A DNA stretch of 64,000 nt, taken from positions 6,473 to 70,472 of the forward strand of contig CAYSHH010000001.1 in the NCBI GenBank assembly GCA_964430945.1, read 5' to 3'. This document shows, one piece after another, positions 1,645 to 17,888 of the stretch (position 1 is the first letter of the stretch; every line of letters begins with the position of its first letter). The DNA is from an uncultured Candidatus Saccharibacteria bacterium (GTDB taxonomy: Bacteria; Patescibacteriota; UBA1384; JAMDBS01; CAYSHH01). The notes under the pieces were generated by a model. It did no database searches and had not been told where the DNA came from. It saw only the letters and a program-made list of their open reading frames with translations. The translations under genes and the position numbers were made by a program.

Positions 1645-3657
1645 TTATTGCTTAATAATAATATAACTAAAACTCATATTCTCACCTGCATTTGAAGAAG
1701 AAACAGTAAAACTTGTATTATCTACAATCGCACTTACCCAATATGATCCTTGTGGCTGACTAGTCGGGGTAATTAACACCAAGTCCCCAGTCTCAATATA
1801 AATATTAGATACAGTAATACTACCAACCGCCCAAGTCGCCCCAGTATCAGCACCCGTCCATCTGTTATTCCCATAAACTGATGCATTCAATTTAATCATG
1901 TTGTCAGTGTCTAATGTCGTACTAGCGGAAGCGTCAAAAACTAATTTAGTTGGATCAGTAATATCCCCCTTATAAGCCCTTAGTGACCCTCCATTTTGAA
2001 CATAGAGCTCTCCAGTAATGTTTTTTATATATATATTATTACCGATATATGTATCATTATTTCCTGCCCCACCATGTCCGATAAAAATATCACCCTGGAA
2101 TGTTTCACCAGCAGCCGCATCGTACCTACCGATGGATATATCTCCGCCACCAGTAGCACCTTGATTAACGATATCGCCAATATATACATTATCTGAGGCA
2201 CTAGCCGCTCTAATACGTATATTATCTGTTACACCTGCCACAACGCTAGCTTCGAAATTTGCATTTTGGACAGTCACTGTATCAGTGATACCTCCTTTTG
2301 TAAACAACAAATTTGCATCCGTTGGTCCAATCCCTATCCAATGTGCAGAATCCACATAAACATTATTTGATATTCTCATACCTAAAGAATCAACATACAT
2401 AGCATCTGCTCCATTAACATTCATATCATACGAACCTCCAGCGGGAATATTTACATCAACTCCAGTTGCTTCAACTGAAAAAATATCTACTTTTGTTCCT
2501 CCAACATCATAACCTAAACTAATTCGCTCAGTTGCACCAACTCCAAGACTAATATTACCGTCTGTATCAAATTCCCAATCACTACTACTAGTTTCGTATC
2601 CTATGAATGAATTACCGTCAAAAGTGACATAATGATCTGCTAATAAAAGATTTCCCGTCATTATCTCAACATTAGCTGTAGTATTATGAATTAAAAGTGC
2701 GTCTACACCGTCTACTGCCAAATCTAAATCTTGCCCAGCCCCTGCCTCAATGTAGGTTGCATTGGTTATACTTTGATCATTTAAATTTAAATTTACCGTG
2801 GCAATAGCTGCGCTTGGAACTATTTTCAACTGATTTGCATCAACCTCAAAAATATCGGAACCATTTATGCCAAATAAAATCGAATTTGAACCATAAGAAC
2901 TAACAGTGTTTACACCGAGAATATTATTATTATTAACATTTAATCCCACTCCTGAGCTAGGTAATATTTTTACAGCACTTGAGTTTATTTCTAAAATATT
3001 TGTTCCACCGATATCAAACTTTATACTATTACTCCCATATCCAGAAATTGTATTGATACTAGTTAAATTATGATTGTTTAAATTAATATTACTCGATAAG
3101 GTTGCTCCAGAAAAATCAATACCGCCAGACACGTTAAGGCCATCGTCAGCTTGCAAATAAGTTGCAGTTTTTATTGCCGACCCAATATTTATTGCTCCAG
3201 CCGAATCCAACACCAATATATCATCAGCCCCAGTACCAGCATTTTTACCATCTAGTTTCTTAGAATTAATCGAAAACGGCGATGCTCCAATTTGTGTTCG
3301 AGGACTCATTTCACTATCTGATCCAACTTTGATACCTAAATAGTACTCACTAGAATTAAAATCAAGAGTTATTGGATTGACATCTCCTAATATTACCGAA
3401 AAAATACCATTTTTGGTAGTCACACTTTGAGTTTCGGACCAAGCATTGTCAGATGCAGTTGAACTAGTATAAATACTAAATACTATGTTATAAGTCCCAT
3501 CCGACACAGTGTTTCCTGAACTATTGGTAAGTCTCCCTTGATAACTCAATTTCGAATCAGGCAAGGCATAAGCACTTTCCGAGTAACCAAAAAAAACTGT
3601 GAAAACAGTCAAAAACGCCAACATAACCAAAAATGATCCGAGGCCTTTCTCTTTCAA
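1645..3657 (-). CDS. Secreted repetitive surface protein (signal peptide, internal ~40-aa tandem repeats, beta-helix/adhesin-like)
   Basis: 670 aa. TTG start preceded by AAGGAGGGG. N-terminal signal peptide (..GYSESAYA|LPD). Repeats such as SGYGSNSIKFDIGGTNILEINSSAVKILPSS and SSYGSNSILFGINGSDIFEVDANQLKIVPSA; Asn/Gly/Ser-rich. Confidence 0.6.
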   Translation of the reverse strand: MKEKGLGSFLVMLAFLTVFTVFFGYSESAYALPDSKLSYQGRLTNSSGNTVSDGTYNIVFSIYTSSTASDNAWSETQSVTTKNGIFSVILGDVNPITLDFNSSEYYLGIKVGSDSEMSPRTQIGASPFSINSKKLDGKNAGTGADDILVLDSAGAINIGSAIKTATYLQADDGLNVSGGIDFSGATLSSNINLNNHNLTSINTISGYGSNSIKFDIGGTNILEINSSAVKILPSSGVGLNVNNNNILGVNTVSSYGSNSILFGINGSDIFEVDANQLKIVPSAAIATVNLNLNDQSITNATYIEAGAGQDLDLAVDGVDALLIHNTTANVEIMTGNLLLADHYVTFDGNSFIGYETSSSDWEFDTDGNISLGVGATERISLGYDVGGTKVDIFSVEATGVDVNIPAGGSYDMNVNGADAMYVDSLGMRISNNVYVDSAHWIGIGPTDANLLFTKGGITDTVTVQNANFEASVVAGVTDNIRIRAASASDNVYIGDIVNQGATGGGDISIGRYDAAAGETFQGDIFIGHGGAGNNDTYIGNNIYIKNITGELYVQNGGSLRAYKGDITDPTKLVFDASASTTLDTDNMIKLNASVYGNNRWTGADTGATWAVGSITVSNIYIETGDLVLITPTSQPQGSYWVSAIVDNTSFTVSSSNAGENMSFSYIIIKQ

Positions 3658-6813: not shown

Positions 6814-6889
6814 TGGTGGACCCGACAGGACTCGAACCTGCCACCTCCACAGTGCAAATGTGGCGCTCTACCAGATGAGCTACGGGCCC
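6814..6889 (-). tRNA. tRNA-Ala (anticodon UGC), CCA encoded
   Basis: Reverse complement GGGCCCGTAGCTCATCTGGTAGAGCGCCACATTTGCACTGTGGAGGTGGCAGGTTCGAGTCCTGTCGGGTCCACCA. Cloverleaf with G3:U70 Ala identity pair and anticodon loop TT-TGC-AC. Confidence 0.9.
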
Positions 6890-6905: not shown

Positions 6906-6981
6906 TGGTGCGCATGGGAGGAATTGAACCTCCGACCTCGTCATTATCAGTGACGCGCTCTAACCCCTGAGCTACATGCGC
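6906..6981 (-). tRNA. tRNA-Ile (anticodon GAU), CCA encoded
   Basis: Reverse complement GCGCATGTAGCTCAGGGGTTAGAGCGCGTCACTGATAATGACGAGGTCGGAGGTTCAATTCCTCCCATGCGCACCA. Anticodon loop CT-GAT-AA. 16 nt upstream of tRNA-Ala, as in rrn spacers. Confidence 0.9.
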
Positions 6982-7034: not shown

Positions 7035-9602
7035 TTAAATATTATTCTTGTCAATTTTTATTGTCTCACCCTTTTTTACTTCGCCCGATATCATTTCCTT
7101 GGCAACAAGATTCTCCACTTTTTCTTGAATCAGCCTTCTTAGTGGCCTTGCTCCAAACAGGGGATCATATCCCTCTTCTGCTAATTTGTTTATTGCCCCA
7201 TCAGAAATCTCAAGTCTAATATTTTTCTCAGCCAAATCGTCATGAAGACTTTTTATCATAAGTTTTACAATTTGAATAATTTCCTGGATATCAAGTGGTT
7301 TATAGCACACAACTTTATCAAATCTGTTGATAAATTCCGGTCGAAAAATGCCTTGCGAAAGTAAATAATCAACAATTACCTTTCCTAAAGCATTGGCTGA
7401 TATATTACCTTCCAAATACTGTCTGATCTTTTCACTTCCGGCATTTGAAGTACAAATAATTATTGTGCTCGTAAAATCAATAGTTTTTCCAGCAGCATCA
7501 GTAAGTCTTCCCTCGTCCAAAACTTGCAATAACAAATTTAAAATATTTGGGTGTGCTTTTTCGATCTCATCAAAAAGTATCAATGTATATGGATTATTTT
7601 TTACGCCTTGTGTAAGTCTGCCTGGAACGTATTCTCTTCCGCTTTTTGTTCCTATCAAACGATCAATAGTATTAACTTCCTGAAATTCACTCATATCAAA
7701 TCTGATCATATTCTTTTCTGAACCGTAGTACGCTTCGGCCAAAGCACGAGCAGTTTCAGTTTTTCCGACTCCAGTAGGACCAATAAATAAAAAACTTCCG
7801 ATTGGTCTTTTTTTACCAGCAATACCAGCTCTAGCTCTTCTCAAAGCATCAGCAACTGCATCGATTGCTTCTCTTTGACCAATAACCCTTTTATGTAAAA
7901 TATTTTCCAAATTAAGCAATCTCTCCTTCTCCTCTTCTTCAACTTTTCCAACAGGCATTTTTATTTTGCGACTCATAAAATCGTTGATATAATCTACATC
8001 TACAATCTTTTCATTACTTTTCTGAGCATTTATTCCAACTTCACTTAGGAGGTCAACCGCTTTTTGCGGAAATGACTCATCATGAATATATCTCGACGCA
8101 AGTTCAATCAACGTCTTTACTGCCTGATATTTAAAAACAATTCCATGTTTTATTTCTATAAAAGATATAAGATGTTCAATACTTGGGATAACTTCTTCTT
8201 TACTCATCTCCTTTACTTCAATTTTATTAAACAACGTTTCTAGGCTAGTATTCGCCTGCATTTTTCCTTTGAAACTATCATATGAAATACTAGCAATAAC
8301 ATTGATTTCACCAGATTCTAGATAAGGCACTAAAAACTCAGCAGCATTAACTGTTCCCATCTCTCCCAGATAATTTCCTATCAAATGATCTATTTCTTTT
8401 ACAAAAAGAATTATATTTCCGGCATAAGTTGTTTCATTGAATACTGCCAAAAACCTAGCTTCAAGCTCGCTTTTTGAATTTACACCAGCCAAGATTTTAT
8501 TAATATCCAATTGGAATAAGTGTTTGTAGTTCAAACTTGGATATGATTTCCCTCTTCCAATTTTTTGTGCAAGTGAATTTACTAAGGTTGTTTTTCCAAC
8601 ACCCGGATCCCCAATAAGAAGGATATTATTTCTACCTGATTTTGCTAAATCGTCTTCAATAGTTTTAATTATCTCTTGCCTTGTTTGAGACTGATATTCT
8701 AGTTTGGCATCTATAAGATATTGTGAGATATCAGTGCAATACATATTGAGATATGGTGTATATCCCGAAGCCCAATCTTGACCTATACCTGCAGGATAAT
8801 AATCCTTTTGCCAATAATATTTCTTCTTACTTTCCAACAATGTTCTTTCAGTCCAAGACAAAATATTTTTTAAATCATTTTCTTTTATATCAATGTCATT
8901 GAGTACATGCGAAAAAATCTGCAAATTCTTGTAAAGTGACATGACAAGATCTGAAAAATTGATATTTGTGTGATTGCTTGCCAATGCTTCCTTGTCACAC
9001 TGATTCAAGAAATTTTTATTTTGTATATCGAGCTGATCTTGAGCGTTTGCAGACAAACTTTTCATTTCATCTATTAGACTCTTTCTAGTCGCATCGTCAA
9101 CGATAAAACCAGATCTGATAGCAAATACTCTACCAATATCCGTTTTATCCAAAGCTACCAAGATAGCCATAAGATTAATTTCTCGAACATTGTTTTTTCT
9201 AGAAATATCTATAGCTTCACCTAAAATTTCAATATTTTTTTCATTAAAATAATCAAATAAATTCTCACTTGTTTTTTTTTGAATATTTAAATTGTTTTGT
9301 ATATGAGTACCAAATTTTACATATATGTTGATGAGAAAAATAAAAATTCCAAAACCCAATACAATATAAAGCAAAGATCTTATTTCTGGATTTACTAAAT
9401 TGCTATTCCTAGCCAAAATTAAATAAGCAAAGGATGATATCCCAGCAAAATATATTAGATAGCCAAAAAAACTAACCCAAAAACTTCCAAAAGTTTTTCG
9501 TAGTCTGTAAGCTTCATAAGATTTTGAACTCAAAAAATCTTTAATCATATTATTAACCCTCGATAAATCAGATAAATAATTAAAAATGGTAAACTCAACC
9601 AT
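7035..9602 (-). CDS. Membrane-anchored ClpA/ClpB/ClpC-family AAA+ ATPase (two AAA domains; atypical N-terminus with 2 TM helices; divergent D1)
   Basis: 855 aa. The N-terminal 100 aa contain two hydrophobic helices and no Clp_N domain. D1 Walker A is LLIGDPGVGKTTL, but the Walker B region reads ILFVKEIDHL instead of ILFIDEIH. D2 is canonical (VIGQREAI..., FLFIGPTGVGKTETARALA, LILFDEIEKAHPNI, sensor-2 GARPLRR). Confidence 0.8.
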   Translation of the reverse strand: MVEFTIFNYLSDLSRVNNMIKDFLSSKSYEAYRLRKTFGSFWVSFFGYLIYFAGISSFAYLILARNSNLVNPEIRSLLYIVLGFGIFIFLINIYVKFGTHIQNNLNIQKKTSENLFDYFNEKNIEILGEAIDISRKNNVREINLMAILVALDKTDIGRVFAIRSGFIVDDATRKSLIDEMKSLSANAQDQLDIQNKNFLNQCDKEALASNHTNINFSDLVMSLYKNLQIFSHVLNDIDIKENDLKNILSWTERTLLESKKKYYWQKDYYPAGIGQDWASGYTPYLNMYCTDISQYLIDAKLEYQSQTRQEIIKTIEDDLAKSGRNNILLIGDPGVGKTTLVNSLAQKIGRGKSYPSLNYKHLFQLDINKILAGVNSKSELEARFLAVFNETTYAGNIILFVKEIDHLIGNYLGEMGTVNAAEFLVPYLESGEINVIASISYDSFKGKMQANTSLETLFNKIEVKEMSKEEVIPSIEHLISFIEIKHGIVFKYQAVKTLIELASRYIHDESFPQKAVDLLSEVGINAQKSNEKIVDVDYINDFMSRKIKMPVGKVEEEEKERLLNLENILHKRVIGQREAIDAVADALRRARAGIAGKKRPIGSFLFIGPTGVGKTETARALAEAYYGSEKNMIRFDMSEFQEVNTIDRLIGTKSGREYVPGRLTQGVKNNPYTLILFDEIEKAHPNILNLLLQVLDEGRLTDAAGKTIDFTSTIIICTSNAGSEKIRQYLEGNISANALGKVIVDYLLSQGIFRPEFINRFDKVVCYKPLDIQEIIQIVKLMIKSLHDDLAEKNIRLEISDGAINKLAEEGYDPLFGARPLRRLIQEKVENLVAKEMISGEVKKGETIKIDKNNI

Positions 9603-10097: not shown

Positions 10098-11596
<1,499 letters not shown>

Positions 11597-11935: not shown

Positions 11936-13423
11936 TTAACCTAAACTTTTTACAAACTCAATCAACGTTTTTACGCCAGCACCAGACCCACCTTTTTGGA
12001 TATAAGGCTTAGTAGGTCTAATCTGGATTGCACTACCGGCAATGTCCATATGCATCCACTTTATTTTCGGATCAACAAACTCTTCCAAAAACGCTGCGGC
12101 AGTTGATGCTCCTCCTTCACTACCTTTGCCAAGATTCTGTAAATCAGCAACACTGGATTTCATCTCTTCATGATGGACATTATCCATAGGAAGTTGCCAC
12201 AATTTTTCATAACTATTTTTTGATCTATCGATTGCCTTTTCAATCATTGACTGATTATTTCCAAACACGGCAGTATATTCAAAACCGAGTGCTATCATGC
12301 AAGCACCAGTTAATGTTGCCAAATCTATCATATAATTTGGCTTATATTGCTTACCGATATAAGAAAGTACGTCAGCCAAAACCAATCTTCCTTCAGCATC
12401 AGTATTAATAACCTCTACTGTTTTTCCATTATATGCTTTCCAAATATCACCTGGTTTTTGTGCTTTGTGTCCTGGCAAATTTTCGCAAGCACCTATCGCT
12501 CCAATAATGCGAATATTTTTAGGATTCATTTTAGAAATAACCTGAAATGCCCCCAGCACAGAAGCCGAACCAGCCATATCCATCTTCATTAACTCCATAT
12601 GCTCAGACGGTTTTATTGAAATACCCCCCGAATCAAAGGTCAAACCCTTCCCAACAAAAGCAATAGTTTTATTATATTTTCGAGGCCTATAGTCAAGTAC
12701 AATCATCCTTGCGTCTTCATCTGATCCACGAGCCACAGATGCAAAAAGCCCCATACCCATCTCAGTTATCTTACTTTCATCATATATTTTTACAGAGATA
12801 TTTTTACATTCTTTAGCGATATTTTTAGCTTCCTCGGCTAATTTTTTTGGATTGATAATATTGGATGGATGATTAGTTAAATCCCTGGCCAGATAGATTC
12901 CCTCTATTAAATTTTGAGCGCTCTTTACAATATCATTAAGCTTAGTTATATCCTTTTGGCCGTCATAAACGAAGTCTATTTGAGATAGTTTTGTATCTTT
13001 CTTCTTGGATTTATGATGATGAAATCTGTATAAGGATAAAAGTGTAATCTCAACAGTATCTCTTAAGAAATCTTCATTCTTATTGCCCACATAAATAGCA
13101 CAACTTCTGATACTCGTTTTGCCAACATAGATTATTGCTAAAGAAATTGCTTTATTATATCCTTCCATATTTAAATCTTTTTTCTTACCAAGCCCAACAA
13201 GTACAATCTTTTTAACTTTAAGTTTTTCATAACTATAAACTACATGCACTTCGCCTAATTCTGGTGTAAAATACCCATCTTTAATAATTTCCGAAATCCA
13301 TCCGCCAAGTTTTTTATCAACTACTTTAGCCTGTCCAGATAATTTTTCATCACTATAAATCGGCAATATCATTGCCTGAAAATTTAAATCAACTAATTGT
13401 TTATCACTAAATTTAATTTTCAT
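11936..13423 (-). CDS. pepA: Leucyl aminopeptidase (M17 family)
   Basis: 495 aa with M17 signature NTDAEGRLVLADVL and metal-binding residues in the C-terminal catalytic domain. Confidence 0.9.
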   Translation of the reverse strand: MKIKFSDKQLVDLNFQAMILPIYSDEKLSGQAKVVDKKLGGWISEIIKDGYFTPELGEVHVVYSYEKLKVKKIVLVGLGKKKDLNMEGYNKAISLAIIYVGKTSIRSCAIYVGNKNEDFLRDTVEITLLSLYRFHHHKSKKKDTKLSQIDFVYDGQKDITKLNDIVKSAQNLIEGIYLARDLTNHPSNIINPKKLAEEAKNIAKECKNISVKIYDESKITEMGMGLFASVARGSDEDARMIVLDYRPRKYNKTIAFVGKGLTFDSGGISIKPSEHMELMKMDMAGSASVLGAFQVISKMNPKNIRIIGAIGACENLPGHKAQKPGDIWKAYNGKTVEVINTDAEGRLVLADVLSYIGKQYKPNYMIDLATLTGACMIALGFEYTAVFGNNQSMIEKAIDRSKNSYEKLWQLPMDNVHHEEMKSSVADLQNLGKGSEGGASTAAAFLEEFVDPKIKWMHMDIAGSAIQIRPTKPYIQKGGSGAGVKTLIEFVKSLG

Positions 13424-13440: not shown

Positions 13441-14043
13441 TTATTTCTTTCTAACCACTTCATCGATAATACCGTATTTTTTAGCTTCATCCGCGCGCAT
13501 GAAAAAATCTCTGTCGGTATCTTTTTCAATTTGAGATATTTTTTGTCCAGTATGCTCAGCAAGAATTTTATTTACTTGGTCTTTTGTCTTTAAAACTTCT
13601 TCTGCCTGAATCTTGATATCAGTAGCTTGCCCCTCAAATCCACCCATTACTTGATGGATTAAAATCTTTGAGTTAGGTAGCGCATAGCGCTTGCCTTTTG
13701 CACCACCCGCCAAAAGAAAGGCTCCCATACTAGCTGCCATACCCACACATATAGTTGCTACATCAGGTTTTACATATTTCATCGTATCGTATATCGCAAG
13801 CCCGGAAGTAACAGAACCACCTGGTGAATTTATATAAATTTCAATATCTTTCTTTGAATCATCAGCTTCCAAAAATAAAAGCTGAGCAATAATGATGTTT
13901 GCCATATGATCATCGATCTGACCACCAACGAATATTATTCTATCTCTAAGTAGTCGAGAATATATATCATATGCCCTCTCCCCCATCTCAGATTTTTCAA
14001 TTACTGTGGGTATAAGCACCTGGTTTTTTATTTCATTATTCAT
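13441..14043 (-). CDS. clpP: ATP-dependent Clp protease proteolytic subunit
   Basis: ClpP core motifs [60 protein letters not shown]. Start placed at the internal Met ([14 protein letters not shown]...), because the ORF-track 5' extension to 14118 runs over a terminator hairpin. Confidence 0.85.
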
Positions 14044-14084
14044 AAGTACATATAAAATACCAACTTCACACCTTAAAATCAAGT

Positions 14085-14108
14085 AAAAAACCCCTCTTGC
14101 GAAGGGGC
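14085..14108 (-). terminator. Rho-independent terminator after HD-domain gene
   Basis: Minus strand CCCCT-tcgcaag-AGGGG followed by TTTTTT, between the HD gene stop (14115) and the clpP start. Confidence 0.5.
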
Positions 14109-14114
14109 TTGTAC

Positions 14115-15482
14115 TCATATTCTTAAATAATAATATATTGGCTGTTCAATTACAGCCTCGTTATTCCGTATGAATTCAACAAAATGATGTTTTGTTTCAC
14201 TGATCTCCAATATCAAACCATCATTTTCAATAAATAATGAAAGACCAGAATGAAATTTGATTTTTTGTTCATTGATCAGCTTTAATTTCTTATCCTCCAG
14301 TTCATGCTTGCTATTGATCATTTTTTCAAAAATTATCATCTCTATGTACCCCATACTAAGATTATCGATAAGACAATTAAATTCCTGTAATTCCTTTTTA
14401 TCCTTTTTCCTCACCCTCGAGCTAATCAATCTCAATATCTCGCACTCTGTTTTTCTGACCAATTCTGTTTTAGTAACATATTCCATAAACCTTTTAAACC
14501 GATAAGCTATATATATTTCTACACTCCTTCCGAGAGGGTTAAAGTAGAAATATCTTGCCATTAAAGAACGTATCAGTAAAAACCAGTACACCTCTCTATT
14601 ATTTTTACAAATTAATTTACCATTACCATCAAAATAAAAATTTAGATAACAGTCAGCAAAATTACAATCCTTAAATCTCAACTCCGGCAACTCAAACTCA
14701 TACAGACTTTCAGTTTCTGGACGTACCCGGCTAAAATCAAGAGCTGTATAACTAAGCCGGTCAACAACTTTACTAAAAAAATAGTATAGTCGTGAGAGTT
14801 CAGGTGAGACTTCATTAAATTTTCTCTCAAATAATGCCAACACTTTTTCAAGATCTATGCCATATTTAATACAAAAATTTTTAACAATATTTTGGTCAAG
14901 ACCAGAGATGTATAATCGAAGATTTTTTTCCTCATCATAATCTGCGTAATAAAAATACTTCATCATATCTCCAAAAGCAGAAGTCGCTGCATCATGCAGA
15001 AGTGCCATTAATATTCCAAAATTTATTATTTCCTCAGAATAATGCCCCTGTTTTCTCATCCATATTTCCAACATGACTGCCGAAGTTATAGTATGATAAA
15101 ACCGACTATGAGTTGGGCATCCGACAATCATTCTTTCATCCATATCCGATTTTGGATTGTAATATGGTAAATGAGTGAATTGCCTTATTTCGTGCAATCG
15201 ATCGAGCCCAAAAACTCCAATCGTACAATTATATATATCACCCTTAATCAATATACTCTTTCCATTTATCCCAGAAAAATTACTAAACGGAATATGCACA
15301 AATATTGGATCTTCATAATAGTGTCGAGCCCCAATATTACCGCACATTTGATCCACCAAAACCAAATTGGGACCCAAAAGACCTTTCTCGAAATCAAAAA
15401 TACCGTCCTTAATCTCTTCTGTCTCAACCCAAGTTTGATTTTTAAGTGTATATTGAAAATTTTTAAAAATTTTAAAAGACAT
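14115..15482 (-). CDS. HD-domain phosphohydrolase-like protein (large, uncharacterised)
   Basis: 455 aa. His...HD motif ([17 protein letters not shown]...[12 protein letters not shown]). Own promoter and strong SD (AGGAGG). Confidence 0.6.
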
Positions 15483-15516
15483 ATCTTATTCCTCCTAAAC
15501 AATAAAATGAGGATTT

Positions 15517-15545
15517 ATTATATAAGATTTTCCAATATTACTCAA
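15517..15545 (-). promoter_or_regulatory. sigma70-like promoter (TTGAGT-17-TATAAT) for HD-domain gene
   Basis: Minus-strand TTGAGTaatattggaaaatcttaTATAAT followed by a TAGGAGGAATAAGAT-ATG RBS. Confidence 0.45.
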
Positions 15546-15620
15546 ACATTACATATAAAAAACGGCCCTTCATAGAGCCGCGTCCTAAAAATAAAAATAA
15601 AAATAATTTTACACAGTTAA

Positions 15621-16064
15621 TTAAATACCAAATTCCTGTGCCTTTCTTTTAAAATCCGGTCCGGCCATATTTACTGTCTCTAGGACAGAGACGATGAAAT
15701 CAAATGCCTGCTTAAATTGATCATCTTTAGATAAAAAAACTTTAACAGCTTCATAGATTTCTGAATCGTCGAACTTATATTTTCTAATATGTTTCCCGGT
15801 AAAACTATGAGAAAAATTAGCTAATATCTGGGAAAAGACATCAGACGTCACAGGATCATCATATAGATTAAACATAATATGATATCCGACAAACAAGTTT
15901 CTTACGCTCGCGAATCGAAGTGACAATTGACCACATATGTCGACTATTTGGCAATCGCTTAAATCAGTTTTATGATCACTTTTTTGTGTAAATCCCCACA
16001 AAATTGCTCGAACCAAATCTGATCCAACCATTCTTTGAGTTTTTAATCCCATATTAAATACCAC
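15621..16064 (-). CDS. Hypothetical small protein, paralog B of tandem pair
   Basis: 147 aa. Shares an N-terminal motif with the adjacent 158-aa ORF (MVGSDLVRAILWGF vs ITGVDLVRALVWIL). Confidence 0.5.
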   Translation of the reverse strand: MVFNMGLKTQRMVGSDLVRAILWGFTQKSDHKTDLSDCQIVDICGQLSLRFASVRNLFVGYHIMFNLYDDPVTSDVFSQILANFSHSFTGKHIRKYKFDDSEIYEAVKVFLSKDDQFKQAFDFIVSVLETVNMAGPDFKRKAQEFGI

Positions 16065-16141
16065 CTCTCAAAAATTTTATTGACTACACTCAACATAATG
16101 AAAATCAATAATAATAAAACGATATTTGCTAAGTAATTGGT

Positions 16142-16618
16142 TTATCTAAACAAATATTCATTTTCTATATCAGCATCATATAGGCAAATACTTCCTTGAC
16201 AAGTTTGCTCGCAAAGGGTTCCTAGGTAACTCTTTAGAAAATCAAACTCATTTCCGTACCCACTTTCCCTTAAATATTTTTCCACCTCTGTATATTTTTG
16301 AGAATCGTCTCTGCTATATCTTCTCTGGCCATATAGCTCGGCAATATATGAAAATGGTAAATTATCTAACATTCCAGATAGTTCACAAGACTTTATTGGA
16401 TAACTGTGAAAGTCAAAAAATATTCCTAATTCTGAAAAAAGTGTTTTTATTCTTTCATGATTGCGAGCTACAAATCCCAAGGCATAAACAATCATTGAAT
16501 CTTCCAATACCATCATTCTTTCATAATTTTCCACTAGAATCCAAACCAGGGCTCTAACCAAATCAACACCCGTTATCTCGTTCTTTTCACACATTTTTAA
16601 ACACCATCCCTTTTTCAA
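16142..16618 (-). CDS. Hypothetical small protein, paralog A of tandem pair
   Basis: 158 aa. Conserved GxDLVRALVW segment near the N-terminus, paralogous to 15621..16064. Confidence 0.5.
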   Translation of the reverse strand: MKKGWCLKMCEKNEITGVDLVRALVWILVENYERMMVLEDSMIVYALGFVARNHERIKTLFSELGIFFDFHSYPIKSCELSGMLDNLPFSYIAELYGQRRYSRDDSQKYTEVEKYLRESGYGNEFDFLKSYLGTLCEQTCQGSICLYDADIENEYLFR

Positions 16619-16647: not shown

Positions 16648-16682
16648 TAAAAATAAAAACAACTCCACGCATGCAGAGTTGT
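16648..16682 (-). terminator. Rho-independent terminator after tig
   Basis: Minus strand ACAACTC-tgcatgcgtg-GAGTTGT followed by TTTTATTTTT. Confidence 0.55.
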
Positions 16683-16706
16683 TTTGTCTATATTTTATTA
16701 AAATAT

Positions 16707-17888
16707 CTACTTAGTAGCGATCTCAATAAGCTTATCGAGAGTCTTTTTTACTGCTTTTTGCTGCAACTCATGATTTTTCTTCATATCAGTTCCAAGTTTT
16801 TTGGGATCAAAGTGCCCCATGTCTTTCGAAATCTCGCTAAGAGCTAATGATATTTTTACACCTTTTTCGGCATTAGGCTTGATATCATCTCTCAATTGAA
16901 CCAAAGTTTTACCCATATTCTCTAAATATTTTCCAAATGCTGGGCCAGTTTGTTGTTTTATAGTATCGATTCTTCGATCAATTTCCTGCTCAATTAAAGC
17001 TTCAGAAATATCTATTTCAACATTTTTAAGCACCTCATCAAGCACTTTTGATTCAAGTATTTGTCTATCTTTTTGTTCCTTTTCTGCGACTATACTTTTC
17101 GCGATAGCATCCTTCAATGCCTTCATTCCTTTGTGACCGAATTTTTTGGCAAATTCTTGATCTTCTTTAGGAAGTTTTACATGCCATACTTCATCAATCA
17201 CTACGTCAAAATTTACATCATCTTTTTGTATCTTCATTTTAAAATTAAGATTGTCACCTTTTTTGGTATCAATAAGTTTCTCTTCAAACTTAGGCATAAG
17301 CACACCCTCACCTAAGATAAACGGATAATGCTTCGAAGTATATTTATCTATCTGCACACCTTTTACCTTACCAATAAAGCTAACCTCCATACGATCACCC
17401 TTTTTCGCCTTATCTGATGTGATAGAATATTCTGCACCTTGTTGTTTTAAGCGATCGATAACCTTACCAACTTCACTGTCAGTAGCTTCAATTTTTGCTT
17501 TATCGTGCTTTGCTTTTATTTTTTTATAATTACCTAACTTAATTTCTGGTAAAAGATCTACTTCTGCTTCAAAACTAAATGGCTTATTTTCATCGAATGT
17601 AATGACATTCACTTTTGGGCTTCCTACCGGCACAAGCTTTTTCTCATGAACAACCCTAGAATAAATCTGAGGCAATGCGATATTCAATGCTTCAGAATTG
17701 TATTTTCCACGACCAATAGTCTCAATAGTAAGCATACGAGGCGCCTTACCTGGTCTAAAACCTTTGATGTCTACTGTCAATGCAAGTTTAGTATAGGCTT
17801 CGTCAAAATATCGCTTCATATTTACTACATCTTCAGTAATTGTAAGTTTAACTTTTGATTTGGGTAATTTTTCTATTTTAATATCCAT
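16707..17888 (-). CDS. tig: Trigger factor (ribosome-associated chaperone / PPIase)
   Basis: 393 aa. N-terminal ribosome-binding domain (MDIKIEKLPKSKVKLTITEDVVN..GFRPGKAP) and FKBP-like middle domain. Confidence 0.9.
   Translation of the reverse strand: MDIKIEKLPKSKVKLTITEDVVNMKRYFDEAYTKLALTVDIKGFRPGKAPRMLTIETIGRGKYNSEALNIALPQIYSRVVHEKKLVPVGSPKVNVITFDENKPFSFEAEVDLLPEIKLGNYKKIKAKHDKAKIEATDSEVGKVIDRLKQQGAEYSITSDKAKKGDRMEVSFIGKVKGVQIDKYTSKHYPFILGEGVLMPKFEEKLIDTKKGDNLNFKMKIQKDDVNFDVVIDEVWHVKLPKEDQEFAKKFGHKGMKALKDAIAKSIVAEKEQKDRQILESKVLDEVLKNVEIDISEALIEQEIDRRIDTIKQQTGPAFGKYLENMGKTLVQLRDDIKPNAEKGVKISLALSEISKDMGHFDPKKLGTDMKKNHELQQKAVKKTLDKLIEIATK

Follow-up and report, generated by a model that had tools for sequence, protein, structure and literature searches.

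A divergent HD-domain protein of predicted SAMHD1 type and a genome-specific pair of small paralogs between tig and clpP in an uncultivated Patescibacteria bacterium

In the 64-kb stretch of Patescibacteria DNA analysed here (the window), three genes lie between tig and clpP, and clpP is followed by a gene other than clpX. A sequence-only reading had taken this arrangement as a conserved tig-clpP-clpX block interrupted by an accessory, perhaps defensive, insertion. Is this the case, or do the genes belong to the locus, and what might they do? All open reading frames (ORFs) were found where that reading had placed them, in the order tig, A, B, X, clpP, pepA and on a single strand (Table 1). The account that we favour, with a probability of about 0.6, is that X is a resident, divergent gene of SAMHD1 type, and that A and B are a separate, genome-specific pair.

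The starts of A, B and clpP were corrected from the positions of ribosome-binding sites (RBS) together with the database gene call. B has the RBS GAGAGGTGG ahead of its ATG at 16052. The clpP ORF is over-extended, in that the terminator hairpin of X falls within its first 25 codons, and the ClpP proteins of relatives (191-198 aa) align only from residue 27-35 of the 225-aa product.

Table 1. Genes and putative transcription signals of the tig-clpP region, in window positions
Feature	Position	Strand	Remarks
Two-ring Clp/Hsp100 AAA+ ATPase	7035-9602	-	855 aa; Pfam AAA_2 4e-52, ClpB_D2-small, AAA_lid_9
pepA (M17 leucyl aminopeptidase)	11936-13423	-	in the place expected for clpX; Pfam Peptidase_M17 3e-119
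clpP, ORF	13441-14118	-	225 aa; downstream flank; Pfam CLP_protease 8e-87
clpP, corrected extent	13441-14052	-	true start at ~14043-14052, ~M23/M26 of the 225-aa ORF
Terminator-like hairpin directly past the X stop codon	14088-14110	-	CCCCTTCGCAAGAGGGG, then TTTTTT
X, predicted divergent SAMHD1/EF1143-type HD-domain protein	14115-15482	-	455 aa
Promoter-like site 5′ of X	15517-15545	-	TTGAGT-17-TATAAT, 10/12 matches; AGGAGG RBS after it
Terminator-like hairpin closing the A-B unit	15562-15581	-	8-bp stem GCGGCTCT...GGGCCGT, then TTTTT
Small protein B, ORF	15621-16064	-	147 aa; probable start ATG 16052, giving 143 aa; tandem paralog of A
Small protein A, ORF	16142-16618	-	158 aa; probable start ATG 16594, giving 150 aa
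Terminator-like hairpin closing the tig unit	16656-16685	-	13-bp stem, then T run
tig (trigger factor)	16707-17888	-	upstream flank; Pfam Trigger_N 4.5e-34, Trigger_C 1.5e-19, FKBP_C

Terminator-like hairpins stand 3′ of tig, B and X. The region has more sites of this kind than expected (12 observed, 2.8 expected), and on one related contig (L002) a hairpin also directly follows X, at the homologous position. X is predicted to be transcribed alone, with an RBS and a terminator of its own and no coupling to tig or clpP. X had been credited with its own promoter as well. A promoter-like site is present, but such sites are not enriched over shuffled sequences (27 observed, 31 expected), and this one is a weak candidate for a true promoter. 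Between A and B no terminator was seen, which makes their co-transcription probable.

The absence of clpX proved to be ordinary. A tblastn search with E. coli ClpX found no clpX in the 64-kb window and no match in the Patescibacteria loci; the query was validated on a gammaproteobacterial locus (L015), where it matched at 71% in the position after clpP. Among eight Patescibacteria-type loci in which both tig and clpP were detected, none had clpX 3′ of clpP. The two genes are directly adjacent on the same strand in L011, L013 and L041 and adjacent on opposite strands in L012, while an unrelated MFS-like gene separates them in L008-L010 and a gap of ~2 kb in L014. Since clpX was found after clpP in none of these nearest Patescibacteria genomes, a "broken" block is normal for the phylum, and the idea of an interrupted conserved cluster is not upheld. 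Absence of clpX beside clpP is a phylum-level trait and no consequence of the genes between tig and clpP. The paper found on ClpX in Patescibacteria concerns host genes. That pepA takes the place after clpP was read correctly, as the Pfam match shows, and the clpP-pepA order recurs in L002. Some 4 kb past clpP there is a gene for a ClpA-like ATPase. The NCBIfam ClpA model aligns to its 855-aa product in a single stretch, scoring under the model's cut-off, and inspection of the protein sequence showed no obvious IG[FL] ClpP-docking loop. With its ClpA-like architecture, this ATPase is a candidate partner for ClpP, or else a candidate chaperone.

What kind of protein is X? It had no significant match in Pfam (E<=1), NCBIfam, PADLOC (E<=1), PHROGs or the sequences of the PDB, and so failed the gathering threshold of Pfam HD (PF01966). 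Only profile and structure searches succeeded in assigning it to a family. A profile of the X family reached HD-domain proteins and, in the PDB, SAMHD1 and EF1143; its PDB matches gave 2.8e-22, 8.6e-17 and 1.8e-14. Pfam HD was matched at E<=0.01 by 16 of 36 family members and HD_assoc_2 by 5 of 36, and two members, P0011 (27.2 bits) and P0020 (28.5 bits), exceeded the 22-bit Pfam HD cut-off. X is thus linked to Pfam HD transitively, through family members that match where X itself does not. The AlphaFold2 (AF2) model of X (pLDDT 77.7, pTM 0.83) has a helical core, residues 130-250, with pLDDT > 90, and an extra N-terminal segment of ~75 aa that is poorly modelled. Its best Foldseek matches were EF1143, SAMHD1 and BT4208. 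The model corresponds to SAMHD1-type structures over its full length, HD core and C-terminal lobe included, and structure comparison placed it closer to SAMHD1/EF1143 than to Dgt-type dGTPases. Motifs in X include sRFx..., DEExN and FDRxSYTAxD. Judged by this model and the family profile, X falls, as a very divergent member, within the SAMHD1/EF1143/Aq_1910 branch of the metal-dependent nucleotide phosphohydrolases with an HD domain, and its description as an HD-domain protein was borne out by this indirect route. The idea that X stands in for ClpX was discarded, as its sequence showed no P-loop on inspection and its fold is HD.

Comparison with SAMHD1 located the putative active site. The metal ligands in X are H130, H163, D164 and D241, invariant across five close homologs and equivalent to H167, H206, D207 and D311 of SAMHD1. 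In 150 distant representatives of the family, H130, H163, E184 and D241 occurred in 150/150, and R127, D164, Y245, D249 and R305 in 149/150; D172 was found in 140, Y313 in 130 and T167 in 115, and position 242 was K or R in 140. X also has equivalents of the SAMHD1 residues R164 (R127 in X), Q149 (Q101), K312 (R242), Y315 (Y245), D319 (D249), R366 (R305) and Y374 (Y313), which we take to contact the triphosphate, sugar and base; H370 and Q375 of SAMHD1 are not retained. SAMHD1 H210, H215 and H233 correspond to T167, D172 and D183 of X, and D218 to K175. The H233 equivalent was D in 101/150 representatives and His in only 14/150. For human SAMHD1, whose numbering here is consistent with the residues quoted in PMC8177086, that paper describes the roles of the metal ligands and reports H210, H215, H233 and R164 to be important for catalysis. 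At the allosteric site, SAMHD1 D137/Q142/R145 (G89/D94/H97 in X) and N119/D330/N358/R372 (no residue/S259/E297/Y311) are not retained.

From these correspondences we infer that X would bind a nucleoside triphosphate, most likely a dNTP, and hydrolyse it at the metal centre. The dNTP triphosphohydrolase activity is an extrapolation, because three residues important in SAMHD1 catalysis are replaced, and the chemistry of the second shell would be unlike that of SAMHD1. The acidic cluster D183-E184-E185 probably holds a second Mg/Mn ion through its carboxylates. Regulation of X must differ from that of SAMHD1, because the residues of the allosteric site are absent. The same replacements could be read as a sign that the chemistry has been lost or changed, so that X would be a non-hydrolytic nucleotide binder or sensor, or an HD enzyme acting on another substrate (a signalling nucleotide, NTPs), with the replaced histidine triad marking a distinct family. 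The exchange of H210, H215 and H233 for T, D and D, and of D218 for K, fits this reading, as does the unconserved allosteric site. The resulting pattern, HD[IA]ATPAxGD..K / DEExN, is itself strongly conserved in the 150 representatives, implying that a particular and different arrangement of the active site has been under selection. However, the four primary metal ligands are kept in 149-150 of the 150 representatives, favouring retained metal catalysis, and the residues for triphosphate, sugar and base contact are kept as well. We consider a loss or change of chemistry unlikely.

Whether X is an insertion was judged from its distribution. Only four close homologs were found among 5.8 billion proteins, making five family members with X itself. 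Three other contigs carry the family (L001, L002 and L004), and on all of them X comes right after tig or a few unrelated genes later. It lies 5′ of clpP in L001 and L002, and the L004 contig stops just past X. The order PGK-FBA-PfkB-tig-X-clpP is common to the window and L001. The slot between tig and X varies among relatives: it may be empty, contain unrelated small genes (189, 52 and 56 aa in L002) or, in L001, be taken up by a second X copy, X being tandemly duplicated there. Identity with relatives is lower for X (35-45%, and 36-45% for the homologs on L001, L002 and L004) than for Tig (47-59%), PepA (58%) or ClpP (75-80%). X, A and B have native codon usage (z-scores -0.1 to -1.0, inside the range of the window), and the only repeats seen around the genes were short, AT-rich and attributable to chance. 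No relatives were found in phage, plasmid or IMG/VR sequences, and no matches in PADLOC or PHROGs. A GTDB scan returned nothing for X, and a metagenome scan a single distant relative. The clade that carries X is absent among GTDB representatives, where the best Tig match was 39% identical. All relatives with X were retrieved through X, so this sample is biased as to clade members without it.

Proteins with the HD[IA]ATPAxGD..K / DEExN pattern number at least 250 cluster representatives, most of them from low-GC contigs that carry no annotation in the sources searched. Distant X relatives examined for context lie on short contigs, with no recurrent neighbour and none near tig or clpP. Some of these distant relatives adjoin toxin-antitoxin genes (AbiEii, ParE).

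Because its position is shared, its codon usage native, and no flanking repeats or phage or plasmid relatives were seen, X is a clade-resident gene. We conclude that it is most likely inherited vertically in a rare, uncultivated Patescibacteria clade; that it is a mobile or defence insertion, or the accessory insertion first suggested, is not supported. Had all three genes been core to the lineage, they would recur together between tig and clpP; this was found for X and not for A and B, which are unique to this genome.

A and B had been called tandem duplicates of an unknown family on the strength of a shared motif, G-x-DLVRA-[LI]-[VL]-W. Their alignment reaches well outside the motif, with 29% identity over 126 aa (BLASTP, E=2e-15; phmmer, 1e-12), and the call holds. 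Both also retain the C-terminal DDS..Y/FDF residues. A is an acidic (pI 4.65), helical ORFan, for which one of five AF2 runs gave a confident model. Neither protein had a significant match in Pfam (and hence none to DUF4065/Panacea, which had been proposed as a profile to search), NCBIfam, PADLOC, PHROGs or PDB sequences, and no fold match was found. No relatives of either appeared in JGI metagenome contigs, IMG/VR or phage records, nor any of A among the 5.8 billion proteins of the protein database. Neither was found in any relative carrying tig-X-clpP. Two candidate origins were rejected. A and B are not a degraded second X copy of the kind that L001 might suggest, as X-family HMMs matched neither, and they share no homology with the 189-aa protein that L002 has in this slot (hhalign probability 0.1%, no phmmer match). 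The pair is probably one of genome-specific, co-transcribed, small, soluble helical paralogs, and would have arisen by an old tandem duplication within the variable slot that separates tig from X. Our best guess is that A and B act together as a hetero-oligomer and, because all relatives have X without them, that they are not required for X. As it stands, the pair is an uninformative ORFan duplication.

X might instead be an anti-phage nucleotide-depletion gene, a bacterial analogue of SAMHD1. The tig-clpP interval would then be a small hotspot, defensive or variable, in which A and B, the three small genes of L002 and the second X of L001 would be interchangeable as accessory partners, as regulators or as additional defence genes. 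The SAMHD1-type fold of X is consistent with this, and depleting dNTPs is an established way in which bacteria defend themselves (bioRxiv 10.1101/2021.04.26.441389; PMC13519002). X has diverged more rapidly than the genes around it and has a duplicate in L001, which fits an arms race; the slot beside it differs in gene content among relatives; two distant relatives have AbiEii or ParE genes as neighbours; and the PADLOC dGTPase model is weakly matched by 4 of 36 distant family members. X itself, however, matches no PADLOC model and is structurally nearer to SAMHD1/EF1143 than to the Dgt-type dGTPases, the type to which, to our knowledge, the characterised bacterial defence dNTPases belong. Defence genes are usually patchy in distribution, whereas X keeps its chromosomal position in 4/4 known genomes despite ~40% identity. 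Native codon usage, the lack of mobile-element marks and the lack of phage, plasmid or viral homologs also speak against defence, and no system architecture recurs, because homologs of A and B were not found. A role in defence seems to us doubtful.

There is also a more far-reaching proposal. Proteins with the HD[IA]ATPAxGD..K / DEExN pattern would form an undescribed, functionally distinct branch of the SAMHD1 superfamily, in which the histidine second shell is swapped for carboxylate and lysine, with altered metal stoichiometry, substrate or regulation. In this clade X would be fixed between tig and clpP beside a hypervariable slot, with an antiviral or host-interaction role and with slot proteins such as A and B as strain-specific modulators. 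We regard this combination as distinctly improbable.

Finally, it is very unlikely that A and B are functional partners of X or of the neighbouring proteostasis genes (adaptors, inhibitors or immunity-type proteins acting on ClpP, Tig or X, with A-B-X as one module): both lie at the same place as X, tig and clpP and on the same strand, their N-terminal motif and C-terminal DDS..Y/FDF residues have been kept through long divergence, which implies selection, and A is strongly acidic, as are many protein-binding inhibitors, but every tig-X-clpP relative is without them, they form their own transcription unit with a terminator before X, and they match no fold or family.

In animals and bacteria, dNTPases of the SAMHD1 type control the pools of DNA precursors and also restrict viruses, and the nucleotide metabolism of Patescibacteria is thought to be reduced. 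Under the favoured reading of X as a resident SAMHD1-type gene, the simplest physiological role for it would be to control the (d)NTP pool of an organism whose genome is reduced. A conserved, predicted nucleotide triphosphohydrolase offers a small lead into the nucleotide economy of Patescibacteria. The X branch, a deep-branching clade, keeps the metal- and nucleotide-binding residues while three histidines are systematically replaced, and it could show which parts of the SAMHD1 mechanism are dispensable, or reveal a new substrate. With genes between tig and clpP and no clpX being ordinary for the phylum, the locus overall is a modest curiosity.

Set against known systems, the locus resembles the canonical tig-clpP-clpX cluster in that tig and clpP lie close together on the same strand, and differs from it in the three extra genes between them and in pepA after clpP. 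In structure X matches the Dgt-type dGTPases, among them CloA and PADLOC's anti-phage dGTPase, clearly less well than the SAMHD1 branch; X does not match the PADLOC dGTPase and has no defence-island context. Aq_1910/O67745 of Aquifex aeolicus (PDB 2hek), which carries a canonical HDLGHPPFSH, and BT4208 (PDB 2q14) are structural-genomics HD proteins and, both being functionally uncharacterised, are uninformative on the function of X. EF1143, the dNTPase of Enterococcus faecalis (PDB 2o6i, 3irh, 4lrl), has the canonical HDVGHGPYSH and NHE, whereas X has another ten-residue sequence in place of the first and DEE in place of the second. With human SAMHD1 (PDB 7ujn, 6txc, 4bzc) X is 12-17% identical and it has no SAM domain, yet it keeps the four metal ligands together with R164, Q149, K312 (as R), Y315, D319, R366 and Y374.

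X, the 455-aa HD-fold protein encoded 5′ of clpP, is an HD enzyme of the SAMHD1/EF1143 type that is resident in its clade, has diverged strongly and has a second shell that is remodelled. X itself matched nothing in Pfam, NCBIfam, PADLOC, PHROGs or the PDB sequences, and only four homologs, with 36–42% identity, were found in a collection of 5.8 billion proteins. A profile built from X and these four homologs reached 412 further, more remote proteins, similar to X in length, in a set of 1.84 billion representatives, 247 of them at E ≤ 1e-10. On two short contigs, L007 and L046, toxin-antitoxin genes adjoined a distant superfamily member, one neighbour being AbiEii/DUF6922 and the other encoding a ParE toxin. 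Pfam HD was matched by 16, and HD_assoc_2 by 5, of 36 aligned family members, and the 36-member profile matched Aquifex Aq_1910 (2hek, 2.8e-22), Enterococcus EF1143 (8.6e-17) and SAMHD1 (1.8e-14) among the PDB sequences. When X was compared with HD proteins, the tabulated values were 22.6 for 2hek, 20.6 for fungal SAMHD1, 20.3 for BT4208, 19.1 for EF1143 and 17.0 for human SAMHD1, with 10–14 for Dgt-type dGTPases and 8 or less for other HD proteins. These values and the profile matches show that the HD-domain call of the sequence-only reading was right, and sharpen it: X belongs to the SAMHD1/EF1143 branch.

The ORFs for tig, the small proteins A and B, X, clpP and pepA were found exactly where they had first been placed. 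Every gene from 11.9 to 21.6 kb of the window lies on the minus strand, and GC content (~32% in the window) is flat across the tig-clpP region. Terminator-like sites were enriched (12 against 2.8 expected), and the terminator scan and reading of the DNA divided the interval between tig and clpP into three separate units. A and B lie side by side, both have an RBS, and the scan found no terminator between them; from the RBS, the probable starts are ATG 16594 for A (150 aa, a form also present in the database) and ATG 16052 for B (143 aa). X is preceded by a promoter-like site and an AGGAGG RBS; promoter-like sites were not enriched over shuffles and therefore carry little weight.

Features of the window and of the compared loci
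Feature	Position	Strand	Basis or description
tig	16707-17888	-	Pfam, strong score
A	16142-16618	-	158-aa ORF
B	15621-16064	-	147-aa ORF
X	14115-15482	-	455-aa ORF
clpP	13441-14118	-	225-aa ORF as called; Pfam, strong score
clpP over-extension	14043-14118	-	~25 codons
pepA	11936-13423	-	Pfam, strong score
Hairpin closing tig	16685-16656	-	Terminator scan and DNA reading
Hairpin closing the A-B unit	15581-15562	-	Terminator scan and DNA reading
Hairpin directly 3′ of the X stop codon	14110-14088	-	Terminator scan and DNA reading
Clp/Hsp100 ATPase	7035-9602	-	855 aa
16S rRNA	10098-11595		
tRNA-Ile	6906-6981		
tRNA-Ala	6814-6889		
670-aa ORF	1645-3657	-	No Pfam family
MFS-like protein, L008	9408-10640		410 aa; nearest GTDB Patescibacteria genomes
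MFS-like protein, L009	9325-10560		410 aa; nearest GTDB Patescibacteria genomes
Tandem X copies, L001	8522-11290		tig-clpP interval
Small genes, L002	3005-3917		tig-X slot
Distant X relative, L007	2447-3348		
Distant X relative, L046	1806-2257		

The hairpin after X falls within the first 25 codons of the called clpP ORF, and the ClpP proteins of relatives are shorter (191–198 aa) and align only from residue 27–35 on. The clpP ORF is thus over-extended, in the public gene set as well, with its true start probably at M23 or M26. The 4-nt overlap that X and clpP seem to share is thus an artefact of annotation, and there is no translational coupling of X to clpP.

Gene order was compared with that on the three contigs, from relatives, on which the four X homologs lie. 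The window reads PGK-FBA-PfkB-tig-A-B-X-clpP-pepA, L001 reads PGK-(565 aa)-FBA-PfkB-(120 aa)-tig-X′-X-clpP, L002 reads tig-189aa-52aa-56aa-X-clpP-pepA, and L004 reads tig-X before the contig ends. Identities to the window were 47–59% for Tig, 58% for PepA, 75–80% for ClpP and 36–45% for X, placing X at the same position in four mutually well-diverged genomes. The unit structure also recurs in L002, with a terminator before X and another directly after it. In codon usage, X, A and B fell inside the window spread (z −0.1 to −1.0; clpP −1.3), no flanking repeats were found, and the phage, plasmid and IMG/VR collections contained no relatives. Of the proposal that A, B and X form an accessory insertion, the HD enzyme and the tandem paralogs stand, and X as an insertion is not supported. 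The four gene orders agree with X being a core gene of the lineage, the outcome that the sequence-only reading had named as counting against it, and A and B were missing from all relatives carrying X; since L001, L002 and L004 were all retrieved through X, clade members without it could have been missed. In L001, the X copies (465 and 429 aa) are 43% identical, indicating an old duplication, and a terminator-like hairpin lies 3′ of the first. That X is a defence gene is unlikely; the reading is kept in view of the fast evolution of X, its duplication in one relative and the variable slot next to it.

A and B align over 126 residues with 29% identity (E = 2e-15 by BLASTP, 1e-12 by phmmer), well beyond the G-x-DLVRA-[LI]-[VL]-W motif from which tandem duplication had been proposed. 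Judged from this alignment, they are real paralogs, and the motif is not a chance similarity. Neither matched any family in Pfam, NCBIfam, PADLOC or PHROGs; A as sole query found no homologs in the protein database, and neither had homologs in metagenome or viral contigs. The pair are thus ORFan tandem paralogs. The tig-X slot is empty in L004, holds the second X copy in L001 and three unrelated small genes in L002, and the most likely reading of A and B is that a tandem duplication specific to this genome took place in this permissive slot. The L002 genes encode one protein of 189 aa and two very small ones of CxxC type, of 52 and 56 aa, all unrelated to A or B and matching no family, with a perfect TTGACA-17-TATAAT promoter in front and a strong terminator at the end.

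When the GTDB species representatives were scanned with a Tig alignment, no Tig exceeded 39% identity, and the top matches were Patescibacteria MAGs labelled 'Saccharibacteria' or Berkelbacteria. At L008–L010 the tig-clpP interval encodes a multi-pass membrane protein of 410 aa that looks MFS-like by eye; thus the gap is filled by different genes in different lineages. The two genes adjoin directly at L011, L013 and L041 (same strand) and at L012 (opposite strands), and lie ~2 kb apart at L014. With E. coli ClpX as query, no clpX was found after clpP within the fetched flanks of L008–L014 and L041; the same query gave a 71% match directly after clpP in a gammaproteobacterial locus. The missing clpX, with pepA after clpP, is correctly described in the window, and is therefore a lineage trait.

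The window also encodes a two-ring Clp/Hsp100 AAA+ ATPase of ClpA-like architecture, in which no obvious IG[FL] ClpP-docking loop was seen. It has no M-domain, and two hydrophobic stretches take the place of the N-terminal Clp_N domain. Its gene is flanked by 16S rRNA and by tRNA-Ile and tRNA-Ala, a pair usually placed in the 16S-23S spacer; neither 23S nor 5S rRNA was detected within the 64 kb. For the 670-aa ORF, NCBIfam gave one weak match, below its cut-off (E 2.8e-6), to the N-terminal part of a mosaic adhesive trimer fibre protein from Bdellovibrio. The ORF may encode a protein that an episymbiont uses at its surface or for attachment.

The active site of X was mapped onto the human SAMHD1 sequence, with numbering that agrees with the residues in PMC8177086. 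X keeps the metal ligands (H130, H163, D164 and D241 for SAMHD1 H167, H206, D207 and D311) and the substrate contacts R127 (R164), Q101 (Q149), R242 (K312), Y245 (Y315), D249 (D319), R305 (R366) and Y313 (Y374). Among 150 family representatives, H130, H163, E184 and D241 were invariant, and R127, D164, Y245, D249 and R305 were each present in 149. In SAMHD1, H210 and H215 touch the phosphates and H233 binds the second metal, and all three, with R164, are important for catalysis (PMC8177086). X differs at each of these histidines, with T167 for H210, D172 for H215 and D183 for H233, and has K175 for D218, whereas E234 is kept as E184; the allosteric-site residues are not retained. D172, K175 and T167 recurred in 140, 119 and 115 of the 150, respectively. 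The pattern thus marks the family as a coherent sub-clade, with the signature HD[IA]ATPAxGD..K / DEExN / D[KR]xxY[TV]xxD. Relative to SAMHD1, X is predicted to retain metal-dependent nucleotide triphosphate hydrolysis, with a second-metal site that would be carboxylate-based.
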